Shown here: piece after piece, positions 5,409 through 40,298 of the stretch
Layout of the letters: every line of letters begins with the position of its first letter
How positions within the stretch are numbered: position 1 is the stretch's first letter
Origin: a bacterium
GTDB taxonomy: Bacteria; Cyanobacteriota; Vampirovibrionia; Gastranaerophilales; Gastranaerophilaceae
Reading direction: 5' to 3'
DNA: 64,000 nucleotides
Assembly (NCBI GenBank): GCA_017559905.1
Contig: JAFYQF010000023.1
Span: forward strand, 1-64,000
Notes under the pieces: model-generated
What the model was told of the DNA's origin: nothing
The model's database searches: none
The model's input: only the letters and a program-made list of their open reading frames with translations
Made by a program: the position numbers and the translations under genes

Positions 5409-7061
5409 ATGATAAAACAATTACGAATAAAAGATTATATTTTAATAGATGAATTAACCGCAAATTTTCACGAGGGCTTAAACGTAATAACTGGTGAGAC
5501 AGGTGCGGGCAAAAGTATAATGATTAGCGCAATAGACCTAGCATTTGCACAAAGAGTTTCAAAAGAAGTTATTAAAAACGGATGCGAAAAAGCAACTATT
5601 GAATTATCAATAGAAAACACAAAACACAATCTAAAACCATTATTTGAAGAAAATGGAATAGATGACTTTGGTACAGAAATTGTTTTATCAAAAGAAATCA
5701 CCCCTAATGCAGTCAGAACAAGAGTAAACGGCACTCTAGTTAATCAAGATTTCGTAAGAAATTTACGTTCATTATTTTTGGACATTCATTCGCAACATCA
5801 AACATACTCATTTCTTCAACCTAAATACCATATTACGCTTTTAGACACTTACGCCAAAGATGTTTATGGTACAAAGTTGGAAGATTACAAGAACTTGTTT
5901 AGCGAATACACAGCTCTAAAAACCAAACTTGAAAAAGCTAAAAATTCTGCAGACGCAACAGAATCTCAAATTGAATTTTTAAAATTTCAAGTAAACGAAA
6001 TTGAAACAGCAGAAATCAAATCAGAAACAGAAGATGAAGAACTAGAACAAGAATTGGAAGTTTTAGAAAACGCAGAAAAGCTTAAAGAGCTCACGGGTTC
6101 ATCATATTGGGCTATCAATGGTGATGACGGGTCAATATTAGAAGCTTTAGGCAAAATAAAACAAAACGTGTCAAAAGCAGCATCGTTTGATAACAAACTA
6201 GAAGATTTGGAACAAAGCTTAATCGAAAGTATTGAAAATTTAAGAGAATTATCAAGTGATTTAAGAAATTACAGCCAGAATTTAGACAATGATACAGAGC
6301 GCCTTAACGAGATTCAAGAAAGATTATTTTTATTAGACAAACTAAAAAGAAAATATGGTGGAACTCTAGCTTCTGTTCTTGAAACGTTTGAAAAACTTTC
6401 AAACGAACTTTCTAATATAGAATTTTCAACCAAAAACATTGAAGAACTAGAAGCCCAAATTCTAAATACTGAAAAAACATTAATCCAAAAGGCTTCAGAA
6501 ATAAGCGAACACAGAAAAAATTATGCAAATGTATTATCCGTATACATTGCTGAACGCCTAACTAAATTAGAATTACCAAAAGCAAGATTTGAAATATCGA
6601 TAAAAGAAAAAGATTTGTCAGCAGATGGGGCTGATGATGTTGAATTTTTGATATCAACAAACGTTTCGGAAGATTTGAAACCATTAGCAAAAGTAGCATC
6701 AGGCGGAGAAATTTCTAGAGTTATGCTGGCAATAAAATCAATTTTTGCTCAAACAGATGATATTGATACTGTCATATTTGACGAAATCGACACTGGTATT
6801 TCAGGGAAAGCATCCCAAAGCGTTGCAGAAGAAATACTTGAGCTTTCAAAATACCATCAAATTATTTTGATTACTCACCAAGCAATTATAGCCTCAAAAT
6901 CAAATAAACATTTTTATGTTAGAAAATCTCAAGCTGACGAAACAAAAGTTGATGTTTATGTATTAACTGGAGACAACAAAATTAAAGCTCTAGCTGAACT
7001 TGCTGGTGGAGAAATTAATGAACAATCAATAGAATTCGCAAAATCATTAATAGAAACTTAA
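5409..7061 (+). CDS. recN: DNA repair protein RecN (SMC-like ATPase)
   Basis: 550 aa. The N-terminus 'LRIKDYILIDELTANFHEGLNVITGETGAGKSIMISAIDLAF' is canonical for RecN, followed by a long coiled-coil and a C-terminal ABC signature. Confidence 0.85.
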   Translation: MIKQLRIKDYILIDELTANFHEGLNVITGETGAGKSIMISAIDLAFAQRVSKEVIKNGCEKATIELSIENTKHNLKPLFEENGIDDFGTEIVLSKEITPNAVRTRVNGTLVNQDFVRNLRSLFLDIHSQHQTYSFLQPKYHITLLDTYAKDVYGTKLEDYKNLFSEYTALKTKLEKAKNSADATESQIEFLKFQVNEIETAEIKSETEDEELEQELEVLENAEKLKELTGSSYWAINGDDGSILEALGKIKQNVSKAASFDNKLEDLEQSLIESIENLRELSSDLRNYSQNLDNDTERLNEIQERLFLLDKLKRKYGGTLASVLETFEKLSNELSNIEFSTKNIEELEAQILNTEKTLIQKASEISEHRKNYANVLSVYIAERLTKLELPKARFEISIKEKDLSADGADDVEFLISTNVSEDLKPLAKVASGGEISRVMLAIKSIFAQTDDIDTVIFDEIDTGISGKASQSVAEEILELSKYHQIILITHQAIIASKSNKHFYVRKSQADETKVDVYVLTGDNKIKALAELAGGEINEQSIEFAKSLIET

Positions 7062-7074
7062 ATAAGGAGGTTAT

Positions 7075-8361
7075 ATGAATTGTGTAAAATGTAATACAGA
7101 ATTAGAGATCTTAAAAATCAAGAGTGCAAATATTCCATATTGCAAATCTTGTAAAGGTATGTGGATTAAATTTCCATACCTACAAAAAATTGCAGAGCAA
7201 ATTGAATTAAAAACAGATATCGTAAACCCTGTTGATATGGAACCAATTAAACATAAAGAACCACCAAAAACTTGCCCTCAATGTGGACAAGCAATGGACA
7301 AAATTTACTTCAATGGTACCGTTGTCGATGTTTGTAAAACTTGTAATGGAATATGGTTTGATAATGGCGAACTTTCAAAATATTTCAGCCTATTTATGAA
7401 ACAATATCCACAAATAACAGATAATATAACTTTTTTGGACAAATATTGCGACCCTGACCTAAAAGAGAAACAAGCTATTATTAATCAAGAAATAGAAATC
7501 CAAAGCAAAGAAAGAGAAAGACGCGTAATTTCTTTTAACGGTTTTGTAGTTTTATTTTTGTTATTATTTTTTGGCTTAATAGGATTTGTTGCATCAGTAG
7601 CATTTTCACCAATACTAGTTATTTTAATACCAATATTTATATTATCACTTATGGGCTTTAAAGTAATAAAACCTCAAGAAGCAATGGTATTAACAGTTTT
7701 TGGCAAATACATCGGTACATTAAGAGGTGCTGGTTTTCATTGGGTTAACCCATTTGCGCAGAGTGTAACACCATTTATTCCCATATCATTGAAAGCAATG
7801 ACTCTAGACACAGGCAAACAAAAAATCAACGACGAACTAGGAAATCCTATAGAAGTAGGCATCATCGTAATTTGGGAAGTTCAAGATACTGCAAAAGCGA
7901 TATTTAATGTTGAAAATTACAAAACATTTATCGCAGCACAAAGTGATTCTGCCTTGAGAAACATCGTTAGAATGTACCCTTACGATGCGCCAGAAGACTC
8001 TGGAGTACAATCATTAAGAGGCGATAGCGCTGAAATTTCGCACAAACTTAAAACTGAAATTCAACGAAACGTAAGAGTTGCTGGTATTAACGTAGTTGAT
8101 GCAAAAATCACTCACCTTGCATACGCTCCAGAAATCGCAGTAGCAATGCTTCAAAGACAACAAGCCGCTGCGGTAATTGATGCTAAAAAAGCAATTGTTG
8201 ACGGTGCTGTTGGAATGGTTGAAATGGCGCTTAATCGTTTGAACGAAAACAATGTCGTTAAACTCGATGAAGTTGAAAAAGCTAAAATGGTGAACAACTT
8301 ACTCGTAACGCTTTGTAGCAACAAGGAAGCTCAACCAGTATTAAAAAACAATCTTAATTAA
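7075..8361 (+). CDS. SPFH/band-7 (stomatin/prohibitin-like) membrane protein with two N-terminal zinc-ribbon modules
   Basis: Two CxxC...CxxC pairs lie in the first 100 aa, followed by a TM segment and an SPFH-like region ('MVLTVFGKYIGTLRGAGFHWVNPF...'). An AGGAGG RBS precedes the ATG. Confidence 0.65.
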   Translation: MNCVKCNTELEILKIKSANIPYCKSCKGMWIKFPYLQKIAEQIELKTDIVNPVDMEPIKHKEPPKTCPQCGQAMDKIYFNGTVVDVCKTCNGIWFDNGELSKYFSLFMKQYPQITDNITFLDKYCDPDLKEKQAIINQEIEIQSKERERRVISFNGFVVLFLLLFFGLIGFVASVAFSPILVILIPIFILSLMGFKVIKPQEAMVLTVFGKYIGTLRGAGFHWVNPFAQSVTPFIPISLKAMTLDTGKQKINDELGNPIEVGIIVIWEVQDTAKAIFNVENYKTFIAAQSDSALRNIVRMYPYDAPEDSGVQSLRGDSAEISHKLKTEIQRNVRVAGINVVDAKITHLAYAPEIAVAMLQRQQAAAVIDAKKAIVDGAVGMVEMALNRLNENNVVKLDEVEKAKMVNNLLVTLCSNKEAQPVLKNNLN

Positions 8362-9555: not shown

Positions 9556-11343
9556 ATGGGAATGGCAGCATCTCAAGCTAGATTTTTAGGTCTAACTGCG
9601 AGAAAAAATAACGTTGAATACGAGGGACAACAGATAAATCAGCAAAGAACTGCTTTATCAAACCAGTCTGCAAATTATTACAACGATATGCTAGGTATGA
9701 CAGTTCCAGTACCTCCATCTATCCAAGATTTTACAAAAATTGTTTATACATTTGAAGACGGAGCATTAACAAATACAATTACATCATTAATAGCACAAGC
9801 TGACGGTAGCTATATTGCTAGTTATTTAAGCAATTTTCAACAAGATTTTTCTATCGTATCAGCAGGCGAAGACCTTATAGTTAACTCTCAAAACAATGTT
9901 GGTGTAGGCGCAAACGGCAACATTTACAGAATTGGCGCAAACGAAATCAAAGCTATTGGCGAATTTGCACGTGATAACGTTGCAACAAACATTCAAGGAC
10001 AAAATTTTAGACTAGACAACGAAAACTCTTACATTAATGCTAATGGCGAAAAAATCACACTTATCCAACCTACCTATGATATTATTACATCAATCATAGG
10101 CAAAGAACCACAACGTGCAGATTACGACTTACAAGGAATGGCACTTAACTATGCCTCAACACAATGCTACGCAGGCGTTGATATAAATAACGCATACGGT
10201 ATGGGGCATATGGAACATAACTTGTGCCATTTAGTTTGGGGTAATAGCGAAAGAAGCATCACTTCATCTTCTGGTGTAACAATAACTAAAACTAGCCCTA
10301 CTACAGAAGCATCATTAACTGAGCCTGGTTGGGGTTCTGCCGCTAACGGAAGTGAAATATTATTATTCAAAGAAAAATTACAAGAAGTTTATCCAGACGT
10401 TTATCAAAAGATTGTAGACCTTTATGTTGATACAATCCTATATTTAAGCGATCACCAATACAACAACACTTCTTACGACCCACAAACAGAAAACTACACA
10501 ATTTCAACTACAAACTACGACCACAACCAAATTACTGAAGAAAATATGTTTCCACGTTGGGAAGCATTATGGGAAGAACTTAAATCATTAAGTCCAGACA
10601 GTCTATACAAAAGAGATCACGAAATTTGGCAAACACAATACGACGAATATAGAGACATTTGGCTTAATAGCAACGATTATAACGACATCTACACAGTAGA
10701 AGAAGCTCTATTCTATGACGGAAACGACCCATACCTAAAAAGCTTAAGTTCAGAAGAACTTGAAAAACAAAAAACAAGCGAAATCGAATGGGCAACTATG
10801 TTAGAAAACGAATACGGCATTCCAGAAAACGGTGGCTGGTATATTCGCTACATCCCAAACGCAACAGGCAACGGTTTTGACCCTGTATTTTATAACGGAA
10901 ATCATTTAGCAACAGGTGAAAAAACTGAAAACGGCAATATCTACACTTCAATCAAACGTTTCACTATTGGCAAAAAAGAAGTTAACCGTGAAGTTAAAAA
11001 CGTAAAATCAGTAATGGAAAGAGATACATCTGGACGTTATATAAGCATTACAACATTTGATATTTATGGAAATAGTACAACTTATGCACTAACAACAAAT
11101 ACCCTTACCGACAACGATGCATATAACGATGCAATGAACAAATACGAACACGAAAAATATTTGTACGAACAAGCTGTTCAAGAAATCAATTCAAAAATTG
11201 AAATTACACAAGTTCAAGACAAAAACTTGGAATTACGTTTGAAACAACTAGACACAGAACACAACGCTATTCAAACAGAAATAGATGCAGTTAAAAAAGT
11301 TATTGAAAAGAATACCGAATCTTCTTTTAAAACTTTCGGTTAA
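9556..11343 (+). CDS. Hypothetical protein with C-terminal coiled-coil
   Basis: 595-aa ORF whose N-terminus reads 'MGMAASQARFLGLTARKNN' and whose C-terminus is a heptad-rich coiled-coil. An 11-bp gap to the next gene suggests an operon. Confidence 0.55.
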   Translation: MGMAASQARFLGLTARKNNVEYEGQQINQQRTALSNQSANYYNDMLGMTVPVPPSIQDFTKIVYTFEDGALTNTITSLIAQADGSYIASYLSNFQQDFSIVSAGEDLIVNSQNNVGVGANGNIYRIGANEIKAIGEFARDNVATNIQGQNFRLDNENSYINANGEKITLIQPTYDIITSIIGKEPQRADYDLQGMALNYASTQCYAGVDINNAYGMGHMEHNLCHLVWGNSERSITSSSGVTITKTSPTTEASLTEPGWGSAANGSEILLFKEKLQEVYPDVYQKIVDLYVDTILYLSDHQYNNTSYDPQTENYTISTTNYDHNQITEENMFPRWEALWEELKSLSPDSLYKRDHEIWQTQYDEYRDIWLNSNDYNDIYTVEEALFYDGNDPYLKSLSSEELEKQKTSEIEWATMLENEYGIPENGGWYIRYIPNATGNGFDPVFYNGNHLATGEKTENGNIYTSIKRFTIGKKEVNREVKNVKSVMERDTSGRYISITTFDIYGNSTTYALTTNTLTDNDAYNDAMNKYEHEKYLYEQAVQEINSKIEITQVQDKNLELRLKQLDTEHNAIQTEIDAVKKVIEKNTESSFKTFG

Positions 11344-20192: not shown

Positions 20193-21077
20193 CTACGCTT
20201 GATGAGCCTGAACTTTTGTATTCAATAAACCTTCACGCACAGTTAACTCTCTTATTCTAGCTTGAGCTAATTGAGATTGGAAATCCTTGATTTCAGAGTA
20301 ATTTTTAACAAATTCTCGTTCTTTAACATTGTTATGGTTGATAGAATGAAGAACTCCGCCCCATAACAATACTGATGGTGCCCAACTTAAAGCGGTCTTA
20401 GAGAAACCCTTAAGCGGATCAAACCATTTGCTATCAGCTATTTTGTTAGCATATTTAACTACCTTTTTAGTGAATTTAGCATTATTTAATTTATCTGCAC
20501 CTTTTGCAATTTTGTCAGCAGCTTTATTAATTGTTGATGGCTTAATATGTTTAGCTAAAGCTTCTGCAGCTTTTGGCAAATATTTACCACCTAAAGCAAC
20601 TGTTCCAATAAACGCTGCCATCTGACCTATAAATGTTGTAATTGGATTTTCTCTAGTGAATTTTCTTACTGAAGGAGATTTCTTTTCAGCATATTCTAAA
20701 GAGCCATTAACGGCACTAGCCAAGCCTAACAATACGCCCCAAGCAGCACCTGATTTTGCGCCATTAGTAAGTCTTGCAGCAACACCAGTAAGCTCTTTAC
20801 CTAACAAAGACGCTTTTGCAGGATTCAAAATAGCTGTAGCTAATCCAGCCACTGCCGGAATTGACCAAAACATTGCTTTTGTAATTTTGCGATGTTTATC
20901 ATCTTCTACTGTAGCCAATGTCTTTGCATAAGCAATTTGTTTTACTGCATTATCATCTAAAGAAATAATTGCATCAACATTCGCTCTGGGGTTTTTACGG
21001 GGATTATAAGCTCCGTAGTTTCTATCTTTACGGGCTTGAAAGCTTTGATTGTCAAATGACTGAACTTTCATATACAC
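20193..21077 (-). CDS. Hypothetical protein (Ala/Lys-rich, probable membrane-associated)
   Basis: 294-aa ORF beginning 'MYMKVQSFDN'. Confidence 0.5.
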   Translation of the reverse strand: MYMKVQSFDNQSFQARKDRNYGAYNPRKNPRANVDAIISLDDNAVKQIAYAKTLATVEDDKHRKITKAMFWSIPAVAGLATAILNPAKASLLGKELTGVAARLTNGAKSGAAWGVLLGLASAVNGSLEYAEKKSPSVRKFTRENPITTFIGQMAAFIGTVALGGKYLPKAAEALAKHIKPSTINKAADKIAKGADKLNNAKFTKKVVKYANKIADSKWFDPLKGFSKTALSWAPSVLLWGGVLHSINHNNVKEREFVKNYSEIKDFQSQLAQARIRELTVREGLLNTKVQAHQA

Positions 21078-21203
21078 ACACCTTTCACTTATTTTACAAT
21101 TTTATTATACAATTTTAAAACCCAAAAGTAAATTTTTTTGCTATAAAAGTAACATTTATTAAATTTTATTTACATTACATTTATTTTTTCATACTATAAA
21201 GAA

Positions 21204-23667: not shown

Positions 23668-23739
23668 TCCTCAGTAGCTCAATGGCGGAGCAACCGGCTG
23701 TTAACCGGTAGGTTGTTGGTTCGAGTCCAACCTGGGGAG
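23668..23739 (+). tRNA. tRNA-Asn (anticodon GTT)
   Basis: Cloverleaf with acceptor TCCTCAG/CTGGGGA, anticodon stem ACCGG/CCGGT, loop CTGTTAA and T-loop TTCGAGT. CCA is not encoded. Confidence 0.85.
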
Positions 23740-25295
23740 TTTTTTAATGCAAAGTTTGCATAAGTGGTTTCAACCCCAGGTAGGACAGTCGTTTTCACGT
23801 TTCGATATTTAGAGTTTTTTTTTACTAATTCGAGTTGATTTTTTACTAAATCTTGGAAAAACGGTCGTAATTTTATGTCAAAATGCTTGTCTTTGTAAAG
23901 AATTGCTTCGGCAATTATATTAATTATTTTCTTACGCTGATGCATTGTCCCACGGATAAATAAATCATGTATGTTATCCAAGAAACCAAGCATAATCCCT
24001 GTATCATCATAAAACTGTTTTTCCAAGTCGTTAATTGTCTGAAGCTGTATCAAAAATCTTTCTTTTTCATCTTGCCATTTTTTATTAAACCTTACCCAAT
24101 CCTCATGGCTTATATTCCCATCAAGTTTTAATTCAATCGAGTTCTCAATACGATTTTCTAACTGCTCGATCTGTCTTTTAAGCGTTGCTTTCACCTCTTT
24201 TGTGTAGCCAAGTTTCTTTAGATGTTCTTCCCTTAAATCATCTGCGATAGTATCTCGCATCTCTTTAGGGATTACAATCAATTTAAGCACCTCTGCAAAG
24301 GCTCTATCAACCTTTTCTTCATTAATATAGTCTTGCTTACAAGTACCACCTTTATAGCCCGTACAATGGTAATAAACGTACCTGTAATTACCTTGTCTGT
24401 CTCTTTTGTTTTCTGCTGTAATTTGACAACCGCAATGCCCACAGTGCATTAAACCTGTATAAGCAAATTCCAAGTTATGTTTCTTTGATTTATTAGGGTC
24501 TCGTAACCTATCCTGAACCCTGTAAAATAAAGCTTTACTAATGATGGCTTTATGCTTACCATTATCATAGATCTTATTCATATACTTATAAGATCCAGTG
24601 TAGAATATGTTTTTGAGCATATACTCCACAGTACTACAAGGTATTGCTTTGCCATTTTGGTTTTTAAACCCATCTTCTTGCAATTTTTTAGTTAAAGTGT
24701 TTAGCGAATAAAGCCCACTGTCGTACAATTCAAATGCGCGCCTTACATATATGGCTCTATTTTCATCAATAACAATCGCTTTTGAACCATTAGGGTTTGT
24801 AACGTTAAGGTAACCTATTGGAGCAAGACTTGGATAATCACCTTGCTCTGCTTTTTGTTTTAGTGCAGCAACTGTTCTTGCAGCAATTACTTTTCTCTCG
24901 TACTCTGCAAAATTTATCCCAATGTTTCGCATCAAATCACCCTCTAAGGTATCTACATTGGCCTCTGTTGCAATAAGAAGTTGAATATCATTTTTGACAA
25001 ACAACGGCTTTAATATCCCGTGATAATCTGTATTACTTCTTGAAATTCTATCTAAACGCCAAACAACTACGGCTTTAACGTTGTTTTGTTTTTTCTTGCA
25101 ATAAGCGATTAAATCTTGAATATCCGGTCTTTCAAGATTCTTACCGGATTTACCATCATCTACAAAAATCTTGCTAACGTGATAACCATTCTTGCTCGCA
25201 AATTCAATGCAATCTTTCTTTTGCTTGTCAATACTCACACCAAGTTTGTTTCTGTCCTCGGCAGAAACACGTGCGTACACAACGGCTTTGTTCAT
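23679..25295 (-). CDS. Large serine recombinase (resolvase-N + recombinase + zinc-ribbon domains)
   Basis: The N-terminus 'VVYARVSAEDR...' has the serine-recombinase catalytic domain. A Cys cluster 'CGHCGC...YYHCTGYKGGTC' follows. The 3' ~20 codons overlap tRNA-Asn. Confidence 0.85.
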   Translation of the reverse strand: MNKAVVYARVSAEDRNKLGVSIDKQKKDCIEFASKNGYHVSKIFVDDGKSGKNLERPDIQDLIAYCKKKQNNVKAVVVWRLDRISRSNTDYHGILKPLFVKNDIQLLIATEANVDTLEGDLMRNIGINFAEYERKVIAARTVAALKQKAEQGDYPSLAPIGYLNVTNPNGSKAIVIDENRAIYVRRAFELYDSGLYSLNTLTKKLQEDGFKNQNGKAIPCSTVEYMLKNIFYTGSYKYMNKIYDNGKHKAIISKALFYRVQDRLRDPNKSKKHNLEFAYTGLMHCGHCGCQITAENKRDRQGNYRYVYYHCTGYKGGTCKQDYINEEKVDRAFAEVLKLIVIPKEMRDTIADDLREEHLKKLGYTKEVKATLKRQIEQLENRIENSIELKLDGNISHEDWVRFNKKWQDEKERFLIQLQTINDLEKQFYDDTGIMLGFLDNIHDLFIRGTMHQRKKIINIIAEAILYKDKHFDIKLRPFFQDLVKNQLELVKKNSKYRNVKTTVLPGVETTYANFALKNSPGWTRTNNLPVNSRLLRH

Positions 25296-26051: not shown

Positions 26052-26906
26052 ATGATTTATTTAAACACTTTTTCTTTCCCAACGCTTGAAGATGAAAACG
26101 ACTTCAGATTTTCACAGAATAGAACTTGTTATACAAGCATTTATCCATATGGGATTTTGTCAAAAAATACAATTGAAAAACTAGTTTTTGAACCAATTAC
26201 TATTTTATACGGTGGAAATGGTTGCGGCAAAAGCACGGCTTTAAATGTTATTGCTGAAAAATTAAAACTTGAAAGAGATAACCTATACAACAAAAGTAAT
26301 TTTTTTAATGATTACAAAAAACGTTGTAGATATGAAACAAATGGCATTCCCACTCATAGCAGAATAATAACTAGCGATGATGTTTTTGATTTTACGATGA
26401 ATTTGAGATATTTAAATGAAGGACTAGATAGACAAAGAGAAAATCTTTTAGACGAAGCTTACCGAAGAAAAACTTATCAATTCAAGATGAAAAGCTTAGA
26501 TGATTATGATGAATTTAAAAGAAACATGATTGCACAACAAAAATCTCAATCTGAATTTGTAAGACAATATATGCTACCAAATGTTAAAGAACAATCAAAT
26601 GGGGAAAGTGGATTCATGTATTTTACGAGTAAAATTCAAAATGATGCGCTCTACTTACTTGATGAACCTGAAAACAGTCTTTCTCCAGAAAAGCAAAAAG
26701 AATTGCTACAATTTATTTATGATAGTGCTAGATTTTACAATTGCCAATTTATTATAGCTACGCATTCTCCATTTTTGTTGTCGATAAAAGATGCAAAAAT
26801 TTACGACTTCGATGAAACACCCGTTAAAGTAAAGCCTTGGACAGAATTAAAAAATGTTAGAGAATATTATAACTTTTTCAAACTGCACGAAAAAGATTTT
26901 ATTTAA
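26052..26906 (+). CDS. Soluble ABC/AAA_21-like ATPase
   Basis: Walker A 'GGNGCGKST', signature-like 'SNGESG', Walker B 'LYLLDEPENSL' and H-loop 'IATHSP' are all present. No TM segments. Confidence 0.75.
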   Translation: MIYLNTFSFPTLEDENDFRFSQNRTCYTSIYPYGILSKNTIEKLVFEPITILYGGNGCGKSTALNVIAEKLKLERDNLYNKSNFFNDYKKRCRYETNGIPTHSRIITSDDVFDFTMNLRYLNEGLDRQRENLLDEAYRRKTYQFKMKSLDDYDEFKRNMIAQQKSQSEFVRQYMLPNVKEQSNGESGFMYFTSKIQNDALYLLDEPENSLSPEKQKELLQFIYDSARFYNCQFIIATHSPFLLSIKDAKIYDFDETPVKVKPWTELKNVREYYNFFKLHEKDFI

Positions 26907-26994: not shown

Positions 26995-27861
26995 ATGACA
27001 AAAATAGAAATTCTAAATGGTGATATAACAAAGTTAAAAGTCGATGCGATAGTTAATGCTGCCAATAAAAGTTTATTAGGTGGCGGTGGTGTTGATGGAG
27101 CAATTCATCGTGCTGCTGGACATAAACTTTTAGAAGAGTGCCAAACTCTGAATGGATGTGAAACAGGACAATCTAAAATAACCAAAGGTTACAACTTACC
27201 TGCAAAATTCGTTATACACACAGTAGGACCTGTTTGGTACGGAGGGAATAAAAATGAACGAGAAATGCTTAAATCTTGTTATCATACAGCATTAACTCTT
27301 GCCAAAGAAAATGGAGTTAAAACAATTGCATTCCCTGCAATTTCTTGTGGCGTTTACCGTTTTCCATTAGAAGAAGCTTGTGCCATTGCAACTGAAACTG
27401 TAAAAGACTTCATTTCAAACGACGACAGCTTTGAGAAAATAATTTTTATAGATATTAACGAAGAAATTATTAATCTATATTTAGATTTAAGTGATATAAA
27501 TTCCAGATGTCAAAAATTACCAAAAATTAAACCACAAGATTTTAAATGGGGTGGAGGATTTAAAAACTCTAAAGAAGGTGAAACACCACAATTTCCTTAC
27601 GTAATTTATACTGAAAATGTTCTCGAATGGGTTCGATGTTATTATAAATTAGAGTTAATAATGCCAAATTACGTTGAATACGTAAACAATGCAGATTTTC
27701 GAAATAAAAAATTCAAAAATTATTCAAGAAATGATATTCTAAATTTGCTAACATACTATATTCGCCAAGATAGATTTTGCGAAGGTCTGTTGGCTGGCAA
27801 AATCAAATCCGGTGAAGTAACTGAACTCGTTGACAGATTGCACGAAATAACAAAGGGATAG
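26995..27861 (+). CDS. Macro-domain (ADP-ribose-binding/processing) protein with ~115-aa C-terminal extension of unknown function
   Basis: '[27 protein letters not shown]' is the canonical macro signature, preceded by an AAGGAG RBS. The C-terminal region is unassigned. Confidence 0.8.
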
Positions 27862-27874
27862 GTGAACTTATGTA

Positions 27875-28240
27875 GAGAATATTTCTTTTCGGAAGTATTT
27901 ATTGTATAATTGTTTATGGCAGAATCGATAAGAACGATGAGCTATAGTTTCTTTTCGGAAGTATTTATTGTATAATCTAAAATGGTGTAGTATTCCATAG
28001 AACCGTGCTATAGTTTCTTTTCGGAAGTATTTATTGTATAATTAAGGCTGAATAGTGCTGAAGTCCATTACAGCTATAGTTTCTTTTCGGAAGTATTTAT
28101 TGTATAATCGCAAGTGAATTCACCGGTGACGCAAAACGGCTATAGTTTCTTTTCGAAAGTATTTATTGTATAATTAGAATTACATTACTGTTAAGAAAGG
28201 AGGCGCTATAGTTTCTTTTCGAAAGTATTTATTGTATAAT
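27875..28240 (+). CRISPR. CRISPR array: 6 x 36-bp repeats (GCTATAGTTTCTTTTCGGAAGTATTTATTGTATAAT), 5 x 30-bp spacers
   Basis: Repeats lie at 27875 (5'-degenerate), 27941, 28007, 28073, 28139 and 28205. Spacers are exactly 30 bp. Repeats 5-6 carry a G18A variant, and each repeat ends in TGTATAAT. Confidence 0.95.
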
Positions 28241-28286
28241 ACCAATCTTCCAAACCCAAAAGGCACAAGGGGATTGGTATTTTTTA
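28241..28286 (+). terminator. Hairpin plus T-run after last repeat (possible pre-crRNA terminator)
   Basis: accaatc...gattggt stem followed by ATTTTTTATT. Confidence 0.35.
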
Positions 28287-28325
28287 TTCAAAAAAATTAA
28301 AACAAAAGAAGTTGTTCTGCTCCTA

Positions 28326-28490
28326 TTAATAATTAGAAATATGAATTTGTGGATTTTCTAAAATGATTGTTCCAATATCTTCCATTGGAATTGTAACTTC
28401 GTCATCAGAATCGAGAGCTTGGTGTACAAGCTGTCGATTCTTGATATGAAGTTTGCAAGGATTTGAAAATAGTAAAGTTTTATAACTCAT
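28326..28490 (-). pseudogene. cas1: cas1 remnant (N-terminal 54 codons only)
   Basis: The translation 'MSYKTLLFSNPCKLHIKNRQLVHQALDSDDEVTIPMEDIGTIILENPQIHISNY*' resembles type II Cas1 N-termini (SpCas1 '...SKLSYKNNHLIF...EIDILLLETTDIVLTT'). Its ATG overlaps the cas9 stop in ATGA. The remaining ~250 codons and cas2 are absent. Confidence 0.6.
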
Positions 28491-31400
28491 TTATTTTTAA
28501 CCTTTTTTGTGTTCTTAAATTTTATATCTTGTCGTTTTTCTTTTTTTACTTCATGATAATTTCCTAATACATCAATTTGGTATTTTTTGAATGAATAAAC
28601 ACTTTTTACTGCAATTCTAATTATTTCCTTTTTCTTTGCTCCATCTTGTTCTATTACTGTAATACGAGCAGAATCAATATCAGTACTTTTGTAGTAATAA
28701 TATTTTATACTTTCTTCTTTTTCATCCTTATTTATTGAAATTAAGGTGTCTTTAAACAATGAAAATTTAAATTTATAGCTTTCATCCATTTCTAACCAAC
28801 CATCTTTACCATTAGATATAGCTTTATTCGGCAAAATTCCTTTTGCAAAGTCTGAAACATAGATTGGCACAAGATAAAATTCTTCTTTACCTTTTTTATT
28901 CTTTTTAGAAAACACGTCTACCCTTGGCATTGAATCATTATTGGCAAATCCATTATGAACTAATATGCCTGAAGTACCTTTTGATTTTATTTTTATTGTT
29001 TTAATTTCGTGAGGTTTTATTCCCGCTTGTTTTTTTACTTCTGACAATGGCATATAAACAGGCTCAGCAAAAGCTTTTTCTGGTTTATTATCAAACTGCT
29101 CTAGCCTTTCTTTTAAGAGGTTGTATACTACAATGTTTCTTTCTTTTTCGTGCATATCTTCCAATTTTTTTAAATCAATTTTTTGTATTGGTGTCTTTAA
29201 TGTTGTAAATCCTTCATCAAGATGTTTAGGACTACGAATGGTAGCTTCGTGTATACCGCCTGGAATTTTGTTCCTTGGAGCTCTTGATACGAAGATTTCA
29301 CCAATAGAATTTTCTAAATCTTCACTAAATGTTCCCCAAGGTTTTTTAAAACGAGGTTTCATATGGTTTATAAAATCATAGTTTTCACGTTGAGCAGATA
29401 TTGTCGATAAGAATTTAACCATACCTTTTGTCGAACAAGCTACAATTGTCGCATCAACTGCGTGATGCCTGTCATTTTCTTCTCTATCTTTATTTATACC
29501 CCATTGGTTTCTTAAAAACGCGGTAAGTGAGCCGTTTCTTGTCTCTACTTTTATATCAAGATTCGCTTGGATATAGTCTTTAATAAACACCGTTATGTAC
29601 CTTGTATCATTCAGATTTCTTGAAGAAAAGCCGTCGCTATCATCTTTAGAATAAGATTTTCTAATCAAACGATTTATTTTTGGCGATTTCAGGTTTAATG
29701 TTTTTATCCAAGCACAGTATTCTGTCCAATCAACTTTTGAGCCAAAATATTCGTAAGGGATTTTATTACCTTTCATTCTATTTTGGTCAGCTAAGCATAA
29801 TACTTTGTTGTTTAAACTATCATCGTAACATCTTGAGTAAGGAATTATGTGGTCTATATCGGTATAATTCTCATCACTTAATCGTCTTATATCAATAGCT
29901 TTTCTTGAATATGGACAAAAGCCTCCCTGTTCTTCCCAAAGTCTAAATCGTAATAAGTTATTTTTCGAATCTGGATTTACACCATGTTTAAAGCATCTTT
30001 GGCGGGCAAACTCTTTTTCTTTTCTAAAGTCTTCTTGACCGGATTTTATCTTATTACGTTCTTCAGCTGATTTACCTAAATCTCTTGCTGTCTCTATAAT
30101 AATCTTGTCAAATTTACCATATTCTCTTATAAGTGCATTTACTACTTTTCTAGTTTGAGAAATTGCTCGGTTAACAACAGGGTTTGTTGTTAGTTCACTT
30201 TGATCCAAAACTGGTAAATATTCTTTATTTTTTGAAACAATTGCATTTTTAAAATCATACCCAGCTTCAGCACAAGCTTCGTTATATTTTAAACCTTGTA
30301 ACATATAAGGTGTAATTTTTTGCATAGCTTTAATTGATAAATGCATAACTTTGCTAGCAGATAAATCTTTTATGCAATCTATAATTTCTTGTGCAATATC
30401 TTTATCTAATAATCGCTTTGTAATTGCTTCATCAGATTTTTCATAGGTTAGTGCAGTTGCAATTTCATTAAATAAAAGTTCTTTATTATTAAGATTGTCA
30501 AAATACTCATTACCGAATACTTTTATAATAGCTTTTTTAATCTCGTGGTATTTTTTTAATTCAATTAATGTTGCATCTTCTGGATTAATTTCCACCAATT
30601 CTCCCGTTTTTTTATCTTTAGTTTTTTTACCATACTGTAGCGTCTTATAACATATACTCTCTACAAGTCCTAATTCTTTACGAGCTTGTTTATAAGTAAG
30701 TTTTGCTTTTTGATGTGCAATATTAATTAAATCTTGAATTTGCTTTGGTGCCAAATCGACGGAAGTCCCGTCTTCTAAAATCAATTTAGTATTAACAAGT
30801 TTTTGTGTCGCAACAAAAATTTCTGCAGTATATGATGCTTTTGGAGCTCTTTTTTCGTCTTTTTCAAATTGGCAATTCCCAACCATGTTTTCCATTGACT
30901 GCAAAGGTCTTTGATAAAATGAGATTTTCATATATTCTTCTTCAAAATCTTTATTCGCAAATTCAGAGCCGAAACTTCTTTGTTTTTCAAATATGGTTTT
31001 TATTTCTTGTTCTAATAAATCTCTTGGTATTGAATTTTTATAATCGTCTCTTTTGTTTCTTTTGGCACTATGTTCATATATAGTTGCAAACATTTCACCA
31101 ACAGTTTGAAAATTGCCACCTTCAAACTGTTGCTTATTTTCACTTATACATTTTAATAAATTACCCTCAGTCTTTGCTTCTTCACTCTTTCTAATTGATT
31201 TAAACCCTCTGCGTTTTGCAATTTGATGAAGTACTCTATAAAATTCTTCTATTGTTAATTCCCTTGATAAAGCCTCTTTTCTTAAAATCCAAGTATCAAT
31301 TCTTTTTGTATTGTTATGAAAAAGATTTGAAATATCATTCTCTGATAAATATTTATTAGCAATAAATAACTGTTTTATTGCTCTTAACCTATAAGCTCGT

Positions 31401-31594
31401 CTTGATAAACGGCGTCTAGCACCCCGAAAAATCCTACGTTCAGCATTTAAAGGAGCTTTAGTTTTAGCTACTTCGCAAGCTTCAAAAGTTCTAACACCAG
31501 TTTTTAAAATTTCACCATTAAAATTTTCGTCATCATAATTTATTACAGAAAAACCTATTGATGCAATACCAATATCAAGACCTAAAATTTTCAT
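28487..31594 (-). CDS. cas9: Cas9 (type II-C-sized, 1035 aa), nuclease-competent
   Basis: Present are RuvC-I 'ILGLDIGIASIGFSV', an Arg-rich bridge helix, RuvC-II 'IIIETARD', HNH 'DIDHIIPYS...NNKVLC...NRMKGNK' and RuvC-III 'HHAVDATIV'. Confidence 0.95.
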   Translation of the reverse strand: MKILGLDIGIASIGFSVINYDDENFNGEILKTGVRTFEACEVAKTKAPLNAERRIFRGARRRLSRRAYRLRAIKQLFIANKYLSENDISNLFHNNTKRIDTWILRKEALSRELTIEEFYRVLHQIAKRRGFKSIRKSEEAKTEGNLLKCISENKQQFEGGNFQTVGEMFATIYEHSAKRNKRDDYKNSIPRDLLEQEIKTIFEKQRSFGSEFANKDFEEEYMKISFYQRPLQSMENMVGNCQFEKDEKRAPKASYTAEIFVATQKLVNTKLILEDGTSVDLAPKQIQDLINIAHQKAKLTYKQARKELGLVESICYKTLQYGKKTKDKKTGELVEINPEDATLIELKKYHEIKKAIIKVFGNEYFDNLNNKELLFNEIATALTYEKSDEAITKRLLDKDIAQEIIDCIKDLSASKVMHLSIKAMQKITPYMLQGLKYNEACAEAGYDFKNAIVSKNKEYLPVLDQSELTTNPVVNRAISQTRKVVNALIREYGKFDKIIIETARDLGKSAEERNKIKSGQEDFRKEKEFARQRCFKHGVNPDSKNNLLRFRLWEEQGGFCPYSRKAIDIRRLSDENYTDIDHIIPYSRCYDDSLNNKVLCLADQNRMKGNKIPYEYFGSKVDWTEYCAWIKTLNLKSPKINRLIRKSYSKDDSDGFSSRNLNDTRYITVFIKDYIQANLDIKVETRNGSLTAFLRNQWGINKDREENDRHHAVDATIVACSTKGMVKFLSTISAQRENYDFINHMKPRFKKPWGTFSEDLENSIGEIFVSRAPRNKIPGGIHEATIRSPKHLDEGFTTLKTPIQKIDLKKLEDMHEKERNIVVYNLLKERLEQFDNKPEKAFAEPVYMPLSEVKKQAGIKPHEIKTIKIKSKGTSGILVHNGFANNDSMPRVDVFSKKNKKGKEEFYLVPIYVSDFAKGILPNKAISNGKDGWLEMDESYKFKFSLFKDTLISINKDEKEESIKYYYYKSTDIDSARITVIEQDGAKKKEIIRIAVKSVYSFKKYQIDVLGNYHEVKKEKRQDIKFKNTKKVKNK

Positions 31595-31619: not shown

Positions 31620-31648
31620 TTGACAGTCTAAACTTTGTTTGTTATCAT
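31620..31648 (+). promoter_or_regulatory. Sigma-70 promoter of tracrRNA (TTGACA-17bp-TATCAT)
   Basis: The -35 is at 31620-31625 and the -10 at 31643-31648. The anti-repeat begins ~4-8 nt downstream. Confidence 0.55.
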
Positions 31649-31651
31649 ACG

Positions 31652-31745
31652 ATTGTACAATAAATACTTTCGAAACGTTACTATAGTAAGAAGTTTTCGA
31701 AAAGTTTCTAGCAGATACATTTTAATATGTATCTGCTATCTTTTA
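31652..31745 (+). ncRNA. tracrRNA
   Basis: The anti-repeat at 31652-31690 can pair with 33 of 36 repeat positions (including G-U pairs) with a 3-nt internal mismatch. A palindromic TTTTCGAAAA hairpin follows. The terminator is agcagataca-ttttaata-tgtatctgct followed by ATCTTTT. Confidence 0.75.
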
Positions 31746-31747
31746 GT

Positions 31748-32143
31748 TTATTTTTCATTATTTTCTTTTGCAAAATTTGCAGTATCTTGAATTAATTTTA
31801 TAGCCTTATTACTATCGTGCATTTCTTGCCCATACAAAACAATGTTATCTTCAAAATAATTCCCGTGCAGTTCAATTACATTTTTTGAACCTGCTTTTGT
31901 ATGTAAATTATCGACATTCATTGTAATAATTGGAATATCTAATTCTGCAAGGATTTTGTGTGCCTTTGTTGGTTCTCGGTCTTTAACGTTATTTATAAGC
32001 AAATCAATTGCGTCTTTAAACTCTTTTGGATATTGTTCTTTAAATTCAACGGACAATTTTTCTTTAATTCCAGGTATTTCCTCAAATGTTGGAATACCAG
32101 CTGATTTTGAAATTCCTGCACCTGTAAAAGCTATTATTTTCAT
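31748..32143 (-). CDS. Mini Sir2-like protein (131 aa)
   Basis: 'GAGISKSAGIPTF', 'ITMNVDNLHTKAG' and 'IELHGN' match the sirtuin NAD-binding and catalytic-His core. The Zn-ribbon module and C-terminal half are missing. An AGGAGG RBS is present. Confidence 0.65.
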   Translation of the reverse strand: MKIIAFTGAGISKSAGIPTFEEIPGIKEKLSVEFKEQYPKEFKDAIDLLINNVKDREPTKAHKILAELDIPIITMNVDNLHTKAGSKNVIELHGNYFEDNIVLYGQEMHDSNKAIKLIQDTANFAKENNEK

Positions 32144-32237: not shown

Positions 32238-32400
32238 TGATATTATAGGTTCGTAAATAACCTATAAAGAGTGTACGAGGGACAAGCCCGTTGACTACAC
32301 AGCAACCCTTTAAGTTGGGTGCTAATGCTTGAATGATAGGTCAAAACTTTAAGTCGGAAACCTATCACTATGGGTTTCTTTTTTGTTGCTCTTATAGGTT
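32238..32400 (+). ncRNA. Candidate structured RNA / 5' leader with intrinsic terminator
   Basis: Hairpin ataggtt-cgtaaat-aacctat is present. Long-range complement aacctataaagag/ctcttataggtt and an internal gataggt/acctatc pair also occur. A terminator-like gaaacc-N10-ggtttc followed by TTTTTT sits 50 nt before the ATG at 32433. Confidence 0.25.
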
Positions 32401-38740: not shown

Positions 38741-39020
38741 AATTTCCTCCTATATTAAATCTTGCGATTTTTGCATTAAACCTCTTTTGTTTTGTATATA
38801 CGGCTTAATTTGGCAAAACTTCTATGAAATTATTATTCGTATAAAATCCTTTCATAAAGATACTTCCTTCTTATTTTTAACACGCTATATTAGCCTAGAA
38901 ATCATTTAAAAAGGTGAAAACAAGAAATAAATATAAATTCGTTATATTAAATCAATAATCCCAAAATCATTTATACCCTTAACACTTCGCTCAATATTGG
39001 TTTTGTTGTATAATTAACAC

Positions 39021-40298
39021 ATGCTAAATTTATTCAAACAGGGACATCCAAAAGGATTATTTTTATTATTCTGCGTAGAAATGTGGGAAAGATTCTCTTA
39101 TTACGGTATGAGAGCCCTTATTGTGCTTTACATGGTACAAGAACTTTTATATTCAGCTCAAAAAGCTGGCAATATTTATGGGCTTTATACAGGGTTAGTT
39201 TATCTTACACCACTTATTGGTGGCTATCTTGCGGACAGATATTTCGGGCAAAGAAAATGCATCTCAGTTGGCGCATTATTCATGATAATAGGTTTATTTC
39301 TTTTAGCATTTGGACCTAAAACATTATTTTTATTAGCGTTATTTTTCATGATTGTTGCTAACGGGTTTTTCAAATCTAACATCAGCTCTGTACTTGGACT
39401 TTTGTACGAAAATGATACTGACAAAAAAGATTCTGGATACACTATTTTTTATATGGGTATAAATTTAGGGGCATTTTTTTCCCCTCTAATTTGTGGAACA
39501 CTTGCTGTCAAATACGGCTATGAATACGGTTTTGCTGCGGCTGGTATAGGAATGCTTGTAGGATTTATTTTATATAAATGTTTAGAAAACAAATTGCTTG
39601 GCGATTATGGAACGTTTCCTGCAATCAATAAAACTTCTGACTCCAGTCAAACAGTAGATGAATCAAATAATAATCAACAATTATTTGCCCTTGTTGTTTT
39701 AATGCTATTTACAATTCCATTTTGGGTATGTTTTGAACAGGCAGGTTCATCGTTAACATTTTTTGCAGAATACCAAACAAATAGAAATTTCTTCGGATTA
39801 GAAATTCCAACAGGATATTTTCAATCACTGAACCCATTATTTATAATCACGCTTGCACCTTTAGTGTCAGCATTTTGGGGCATTTTAAGAAGCAAACAGA
39901 AAGAGCCAACTTCAGTTGAAAAATTCACAATTTCATTATTTTTAATCTCAATATCTTTTGTTATTTTAGCATTTGCAGGATTTTTAGCAGGTACAGGTAA
40001 AGTTTCACCGCTTTGGCTTGTTGCCGGATACTTCATTATGACAATAGCTGAACTTTGTCTTTCTCCAATAGGACTGTCGCTTGTTTCAAAACTTGCACCT
40101 AGGAAATTTTTATCACTTTTGATGGGATGTTGGTTTTTAACCAATTTTGCTGGCAACCTAATTGCTGGGATATGGGGCGGTAGTTACGAAACAATATCGA
40201 CAACAAAACTATTCGGCGGACTTGCTGTTTTATCATTTTCGGCGTGTTTATTGTTACTTTGTTTTATATCAAAGCTTAACAACGCCCTAAAAAGATAA
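39021..40298 (+). CDS. Proton-dependent oligopeptide transporter (POT/PTR2, DtpT-like)
   Basis: 'GLFLLFCVEMWERFSYYGMRALIVLYM' is the POT family signature. ~12 TM segments. Confidence 0.85.
   Translation: MLNLFKQGHPKGLFLLFCVEMWERFSYYGMRALIVLYMVQELLYSAQKAGNIYGLYTGLVYLTPLIGGYLADRYFGQRKCISVGALFMIIGLFLLAFGPKTLFLLALFFMIVANGFFKSNISSVLGLLYENDTDKKDSGYTIFYMGINLGAFFSPLICGTLAVKYGYEYGFAAAGIGMLVGFILYKCLENKLLGDYGTFPAINKTSDSSQTVDESNNNQQLFALVVLMLFTIPFWVCFEQAGSSLTFFAEYQTNRNFFGLEIPTGYFQSLNPLFIITLAPLVSAFWGILRSKQKEPTSVEKFTISLFLISISFVILAFAGFLAGTGKVSPLWLVAGYFIMTIAELCLSPIGLSLVSKLAPRKFLSLLMGCWFLTNFAGNLIAGIWGGSYETISTTKLFGGLAVLSFSACLLLLCFISKLNNALKR

Follow-up and report, generated by a model that had tools for sequence, protein, structure and literature searches.

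The window, by which we mean the whole 64,000-nucleotide stretch that was analysed, contains a type II-C CRISPR–Cas locus in which a short array and cas9 converge, with a predicted tracrRNA gene on the other side of cas9. The features on which the argument depends are as follows.

27875-28240, + strand: CRISPR array of six 36-bp repeats and five 30-bp spacers, with a period of 66 nt
27875-27910, + strand: repeat 1, the terminal, cas-distal and oldest copy; degenerate, with its 3′ 29 nt, including TTGTATAAT, intact
27911-27940, + strand: spacer 1 (spacers 2-5 separate repeats 2-6)
27941-27976, 28007-28042, 28073-28108, 28139-28174 and 28205-28240, + strand: repeats 2-6
27905-27910, 27971-27976, 28037-28042, 28103-28108, 28169-28174 and 28235-28240, + strand: six TATAAT hexamers
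28241-28286, + strand: predicted intrinsic terminator directly 3′ of the last repeat, a hairpin ACCAATCTTC...GGGGATTGGT (28241-28278) and then a T run
28241-28326, + strand: leader and the last few cas2 codons, aligning with the cas2-array interval of relatives
28326-28490, - strand: cas1 remnant of 54 codons (residues 1-54), its ATG overlapping the cas9 stop (ATGA)
28487-31594, - strand: cas9, type II-C, 1035 aa, convergent with the array
31620-31648, + strand: predicted tracrRNA promoter, TTGACA, 17 nt, TG-T-TATCAT
31652-31686, + strand: anti-repeat, 86-89% complementary to the repeats
31655-31744, + strand: predicted tracrRNA of about 90 nt, comprising anti-repeat, nexus-like hairpin and terminator
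31709-31738, + strand: tracrRNA terminator hairpin, followed by TCTTTT

The consensus repeat on the + strand is GCTATAGTTTCTTTTCGGAAGTATTTATTGTATAAT. All six copies have TTATTGTATAAT as their 3′ end, with TTGTATAAT at 27902-27910, 27968-27976 and 28034-28042 in repeats 1-3 and at 28100-28108, 28166-28174 and 28232-28240 in repeats 4-6. Repeats 5 and 6 carry the substitution G18A. Repeat 1 has five mismatches, every one of them within its first 7 nt. It is the copy distal to cas9 and lies near a gene for a protein with Macro and DUF6508 domains (26995-27861, + strand), which is immediately upstream of the array; the initial annotation had put the degenerate repeat at this end, far from cas9, and this was confirmed.

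The Cas9 protein is compact (within the range of about 1000-1100 aa) and has both RuvC and HNH domains (Pfam HNH_4, RuvC_III and Cas9_RuvC); it scores 798 bits against TIGR01865. Its best PDB matches are 6jdq/6jdv-type chains (E about 1e-186), which we take to be NmeCas9, and on this comparison the window Cas9 appears nearest to the NmeCas9 group among solved structures. A Cas9 search recovered a tight clade of 49-99% identity, whose host genomes in a genome scan are Gastranaerophilales / Vampirovibrio-type MAGs from guts. About 20 loci share the gene order tracrRNA, cas9, cas1, cas2, a leader of about 57 nt and the array, and the array is antisense to cas9 in every locus of the clade. The Cas1 of the relatives is of the cas1_NMENI type and Cas2 is present; in L012 and L082 there is cas9-cas1-cas2 and nothing else before the array. 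We note that one member of the clade, L001 (CAZMZD010000004.1, Cas9 78% identical), is labelled 'uncultured Gammaproteobacteria'. By its Cas9, repeat, leader and tracrRNA it belongs with the Gastranaerophilales clade, thus the bin label is probably wrong.

The window itself lacks a complete cas9-cas1-cas2 operon. The cas1 stub matches the N-terminal part of Cas1 from the relatives at 67-70% identity; the remainder of cas1 and nearly all of cas2 have been deleted, with a few last cas2 codons persisting. With cas1 reduced to a 54-codon stub and cas2 missing, while the relatives carry both, the window holds a type II-C locus that has lost its adaptation genes. In L081, a locus from another sample with a Cas9 99% identical to that of the window, cas1-cas2 has also gone but through a different deletion (L081 11105-11340), which retains about 8 cas1 codons and Cas2 residues 48-106, where the window retains Cas1 residues 1-54. 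Neither deletion can be derived from the other; the adaptation module has therefore been lost twice, independently. Kept despite both deletions are cas9, the tracrRNA, the leader and the array. Two deletions that hit only the adaptation genes look like a selective loss of adaptation with retention of interference.

Alignment of the relatives locates a conserved leader beside cas2, and the hairpin that follows the last repeat lies inside this cas-proximal acquisition leader. Seven of its ten base pairs covary and the T run is invariant (16 loci), and the hairpin occupies the same position in L001-L021. It can act as a terminator in the + direction only, and there it probably prevents transcripts of the array from continuing, antisense, into cas2-cas1-cas9. 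A terminator hairpin in the leader is thus documented for the window's clade; we know of no description of such an element in type II-C systems, including that of Nme.

The strand on which the array is read can be judged from the tracrRNA. A tracrRNA promoter and an intrinsic terminator are found only on the + strand and are conserved in about 20 relatives, in which the promoter is TTGACA-17-TATAAT. The anti-repeat is complementary to the repeat, and the two covary between loci. When the repeat was fused to the tracrRNA through GAAA, the predicted fold (-53 kcal/mol, z = -10) had the expected shape of duplex, nexus and terminator. Of the non-Watson-Crick positions in the paired region, 26 could form G-U solely if both RNAs are + sense, against 3 that could do so solely in the - sense; 17 of the 26 are the same position 1. 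The repeat also resembles those of Neisseria and Campylobacter in the + sense. Because the tracrRNA signals, the G-U asymmetry, the covarying leader terminator and the Nme/Cje-like sense of the repeat agree, reading of the array on the + strand, antisense to cas9, is well supported; the + orientation given in the initial annotation, which had been matched to the + strand anti-repeat, is borne out. An Rfam gathering search of the window yielded two tRNAs and a SAM riboswitch and nothing else, hence neither a tracrRNA nor a CRISPR family; a consensus fold of three tracrRNA sequences involved too few to be useful. On the opposite strand (31644-31686, -) the complement of the anti-repeat is repeat-like and has TTGTACAAT as its end, some 58 nt 5′ of the cas9 ATG. 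A promoter scan of the cas9 strand near the anti-repeat gave TCGAAA-18-TATGAT, and the tracrRNA gene and the promoter of cas9 may overlap in a back-to-back arrangement.

In the initial annotation every repeat was described as ending in an extended -10 element, a perfect TGnTATAAT. This does not hold. A search for TGNTATAAT found six sites in the window, all of them outside the array; the bases ahead of the hexamer are T(-15) T(-14) G(-13), which places the TG one base too near TATAAT, and TG at -15/-14 is absent from the window array. Each of the six repeats does have the TATAAT hexamer at its 3′ extremity in the crRNA sense. No -35 element accompanies this box, the sequence at 17-nt spacing being TTTCTT (2/6 match), and the repeats are missing from the list given by the promoter scan. 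TATAAT occurs 110 times in the whole window against 96 +/- 10 in shuffles, and in DNA this AT-rich the hexamer alone has no evidential weight. The six copies belong to one repeated unit and do not amount to six independent events. Every repeat also has TACAAT on the - strand (ATTATACAAT) and a second + strand box, TATAGT, at repeat positions 4-9. It is the comparative pattern that goes beyond chance, and not the box within the window.

We also considered the five TTGTATAAT sites elsewhere in the window as markers of real promoters. They are uninformative, as three of the five are within ORFs. The two others are upstream of genes: one (39006-39014, + strand) ends 6 nt 5′ of the ATG of an ORF at 39021-40298, whose mRNA may be leaderless, and one (21104-21112, - strand) is 27 nt upstream of the start of an ORF at 20193-21077.

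Across the clade the repeat reads GTTATAGTTTCCTTTCGAAAGTATTTATTGTATAAT, or a near variant of this, in the crRNA sense. The 10 nt at its 3′ end, ATTGTATAAT, show no variation in 20 loci with Cas9 identities of 56-81%. When 11 different consensus repeats are compared, changes are seen at positions 2, 4, 12-13, 17-18 and 21-25 and never at positions 26-36, which include ATTGTATAAT. TG in the extended -10 register is absent from all loci of the close clade. Of 33 loci from more distant II-C relatives (Cas9 35-43% identical), 30 carry TAnnnT in exactly this register and 24 have TG at -15/-14, for example TGCTATAAT and TGTTACAAT. The initial annotation had suggested a comparison with the repeats of Cas9 orthologues as a check on its -10 box, and on this point the box is indeed conserved, as TATAAT in 20/20 close loci and as TAnnnT in the distant ones. 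These comparisons agree with a function for the 3′ end of the repeat, and the invariance cannot be put down to pairing with the tracrRNA. At the places corresponding to repeat positions 34-35, the sequence complementary to the anti-repeat is variable (AA is kept in only 5/17). If the tracrRNA starts as predicted, 7 nt downstream of its -10, it leaves 3-4 nt at the 3′ end of the repeat unpaired; positions 34-35 are thus fixed in the repeat even though their counterpart is variable and upstream of the predicted tracrRNA start. In the terminal, cas-distal repeats of the clade, 38 mismatches fall within the 5′ half against 6 within the 3′ half, and some terminal remnants retain little beyond TTGTATAAT. 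This polar decay fits a promoter that is still required for the first spacer; it may also stem from recombination between repeats.

We consider it reasonably probable that the repeats carry embedded crRNA promoters, in the form of plain -10 boxes with neither a TG nor a -35 element. The Nme-like, repeat-internal crRNA transcription proposed in the initial annotation is in this form upheld as to the II-C architecture and the register of the hexamer; its extended -10 has to be given up, and the RNase III independence that it named is at most a possible trait of the window locus. Array anatomy, strand, tracrRNA, terminator, homology and conservation are shown by the sequences, whereas we infer promoter use of the hexamer, the start positions and the part played by RNase III. 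Since the hexamer ends on the last base of the repeat, in the same register as in Nme and Cje, RNA polymerase would start from each -10 box at 5-8 nt into the next spacer, and the primary transcript would consist of a guide of about 22-25 nt and the downstream repeat. Transcripts would pass through the later units and end at the leader hairpin after the last repeat, which would prevent antisense transcription of the cas genes. The crRNA's repeat portion would pair with the tracrRNA anti-repeat, the duplex would be bound by Cas9 and the 3′ side would then be trimmed, probably by RNase III. With a plain TTG-TATAAT in place of TGnTAnnnT each promoter is probably weak; starts would sum along the array, such that the newest, cas-proximal spacers should be covered best. 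A long pre-crRNA may arise in addition in the window, by read-through out of the Macro/DUF6508 gene.

Several observations count against promoters in the repeats. The box has no TG or -35, whereas the tracrRNA promoters of the same clade use TTGACA-17-TATAAT, and a bare -10 may be weak. The 3′ end of the repeat adjoins the leader, that is, the integration site, and the symmetry of the repeat ends could serve the integrase and not transcription. There is no purine preference at spacer positions 6-8 among 310 unique spacers of the clade. An apparent start-site signature at positions 7-8 of the window spacers (T in 5/5 and G in 4/5, e.g. 27917-27918) was rejected as chance, there being no bias in the 310 spacers.

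For the Neisseria/Campylobacter II-C architecture, to which the window locus belongs, promoters embedded in the repeats have been demonstrated by experiment (PMC3656092, PMC5965381, PMC12477760). In N. meningitidis (Zhang et al. 2013, as summarised in the review PMC5965381 and in PMC12477760) transcription from these promoters starts at the sixth nucleotide of the spacer. The Nme II-C system and the window locus are alike in having 36-bp repeats, 30-bp spacers, an array antisense to cas9-cas1-cas2, an acquisition leader at the transcriptional 3′ (cas-proximal) end, a separately transcribed tracrRNA and a -10 hexamer ending on the last base of the repeat. The repeats themselves are similar, GTTGTAGC...GCTACAAT in Nme and GTTATAGT...TTGTATAAT in the window. 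Nme has TG at -15/-14 (TGCTACAAT), whereas the TTG-TATAAT of the window is a perfect hexamer with no extended element; the window also differs in its Gastranaerophilales-like host of about 31% G+C and in its deleted cas1-cas2. The Cje system likewise has an AT-rich genome and a -10 box at the end of each repeat (in full, TGGTAAAAT), but its box has TG in register, which that of the window does not, and its Cas9 is more distant from the window Cas9 (5x2g, E 2.5e-95). In the minimal type II-C system of C. jejuni NCTC11168 the repeat ends GGTAAAAT and primary crRNAs begin at spacer position 5, while RNase III, acting with tracrRNA, generates only the 3′ end of the crRNA (Dugar et al. 2013, PMC3656092). 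The II-A systems (Streptococcus pyogenes) resemble the window in their tracrRNA-dependent crRNAs and mirror-image repeat ends, but in the window the leader is at the 3′ end of the transcript and contains a terminator. II-A repeats typically end in C, not T. According to the legend of Extended Data Fig. 4 of PMC12477760, II-A arrays have a single promoter in the leader, at the acquisition end. The window appears to be a further example of the known Nme/Cje II-C design, involving no new mechanism.

It is possible, though we think it rather unlikely, that the array is transcribed on the + strand from an external promoter, giving a long pre-crRNA for II-A-like processing, in which RNase III and tracrRNA make the cut and the 5′ side is trimmed. 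The upstream source would be read-through from the ATPase-Macro/DUF6508 genes here and whatever adjoins the array elsewhere, and TATAAT would have been kept for terminal symmetry, for recognition of the leader-repeat junction by Cas1-Cas2 or through AT-richness. In the window the Macro/DUF6508 gene has the orientation of the array and stops at 27861, leaving 13 nt ahead of repeat 1 in which no terminator is predicted, and in L008, L009, L012, L018 and L021 co-directional ORFs end 37-101 nt before the array. In L001, L013 and L019, however, the nearest upstream ORF is directed away from the array, and the upstream flanks are unrelated between loci; there is thus no conserved external promoter, and the arrays are read antisense to the cas operon, their acquisition end being the 3′ end of the transcript. 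The repeat ends point both ways. TATAA mirrors the TTATA at the 5′ end of the repeat, and this symmetry covaries across the II-C repeats of distant relatives (positions 3/34 are T:A in 15 loci and C:G in 8), so conservation is no proof of promoter function; the lack of TG and -35 and the chance-level frequency of TATAAT also suit an external promoter. Against it, position 2 switches between T and C with no mirrored change at position 35, which remains A, and position 36 is T in 26/27 repeats, not the symmetric C. The T at position 36 supplies the essential -7 T on the + strand, and the - strand lacks one. Finally, the homologous arrays of Nme and Cje use internal promoters (PMC3656092, PMC12477760).

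A more far-reaching version of the favoured reading seems doubtful to us: that in this Melainabacteria clade a bare, perfect -10 has replaced the extended -10 of other II-C systems, and that with adaptation repeatedly and independently deleted, a frozen Cas9 performs a fixed task and not adaptive immunity. If true, the fixed task might be the restraining of particular mobile elements or gene regulation, and cas9, the tracrRNA, the leader terminator and the five-spacer array would be what is retained for it. That the locus is instead a decaying remnant, no longer usefully expressed, with its boxes as inherited relics, is improbable. Reduction of cas1 to 54 codons, loss of cas2, an array of only five spacers with a degenerate first repeat and the lack of a protospacer in viral contigs for the 3/5 spacers searched would all suit such decay; set against these are an intact 1035-codon cas9 ORF that is 99% identical to a copy from another sample, an intact tracrRNA promoter, anti-repeat and terminator, five of six repeats intact, and two different deletions that remove adaptation genes only. 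A classical leader-driven transcript on the - strand, entering from the cas9 side and making the + strand box irrelevant, would suit the cas operon being directed towards the array, the TACAAT in every repeat and the TTAACA -35 provided by one spacer, but it would need a - strand tracrRNA in the space of only about 55 nt from anti-repeat to cas9 start, where there is no terminator, and it runs counter to the + strand tracrRNA promoter and terminator of all relatives, the G-U pattern and the direction in which the post-array hairpin and T run act, such that on these sequence features it is effectively excluded.

Repeat-embedded promoters let compact II-C Cas9 systems make guides with no leader promoter and minimal processing, and the same layout in gut Melainabacteria would extend it to another phylum. 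The TG-less version bears on the minimal repeat promoter and on predictions, for new Cas9 orthologues, of array orientation and guide length. In practice the yield is modest, namely a predicted guide, tracrRNA and orientation for a clade of 1035-aa Cas9. A more interesting lead may be the two different cas1-cas2 deletions in near-identical loci.

For three of the five spacers the mature part was compared with IMG/VR viral contigs and had no match, so no PAM or target was derived from them. Related arrays have no spacers in common (at up to 2 mismatches), and the sole sequence shared by L006 and L012 is a cas-distal spacer with a remnant repeat. Spacer 22 of L012 matches L012's own cas9 (9581-9610) at 30/30 positions and is thus self-targeting; the target site is also present at 30/30 in L006 and L021 and at 25/27 in L019 and L011.

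Upstream of the Macro/DUF6508 gene lies a gene for an ABC-type ATPase (26052-26906, + strand) with a PADLOC match to PtuA/AriA-like defence ATPases. The Macro protein had no match in PADLOC; the pair may be a two-gene defence cassette. Further out, a large serine recombinase gene (23679-25295, - strand) overlaps the 3′ part of a tRNA gene (23668-23739, + strand), seemingly the boundary of an integrated element that adjoins the defence region. On the other side, beside the tracrRNA, is a Sir2-family fragment of 131 aa (31748-32143, - strand). Its position is taken in L081 by a resolvase and a ParB_N gene (6055-7844), and L082 has a WYL-domain gene between the SAM-riboswitch region and cas9; this is a variable spot beside a conserved SAM-riboswitch flank (32259-32342). 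Placement of the whole locus on a mobile element was considered and rejected. L082 shares the SAM-riboswitch flank and has an intact cas operon, thus the CRISPR locus occupies a conserved chromosomal site at which the neighbours vary.
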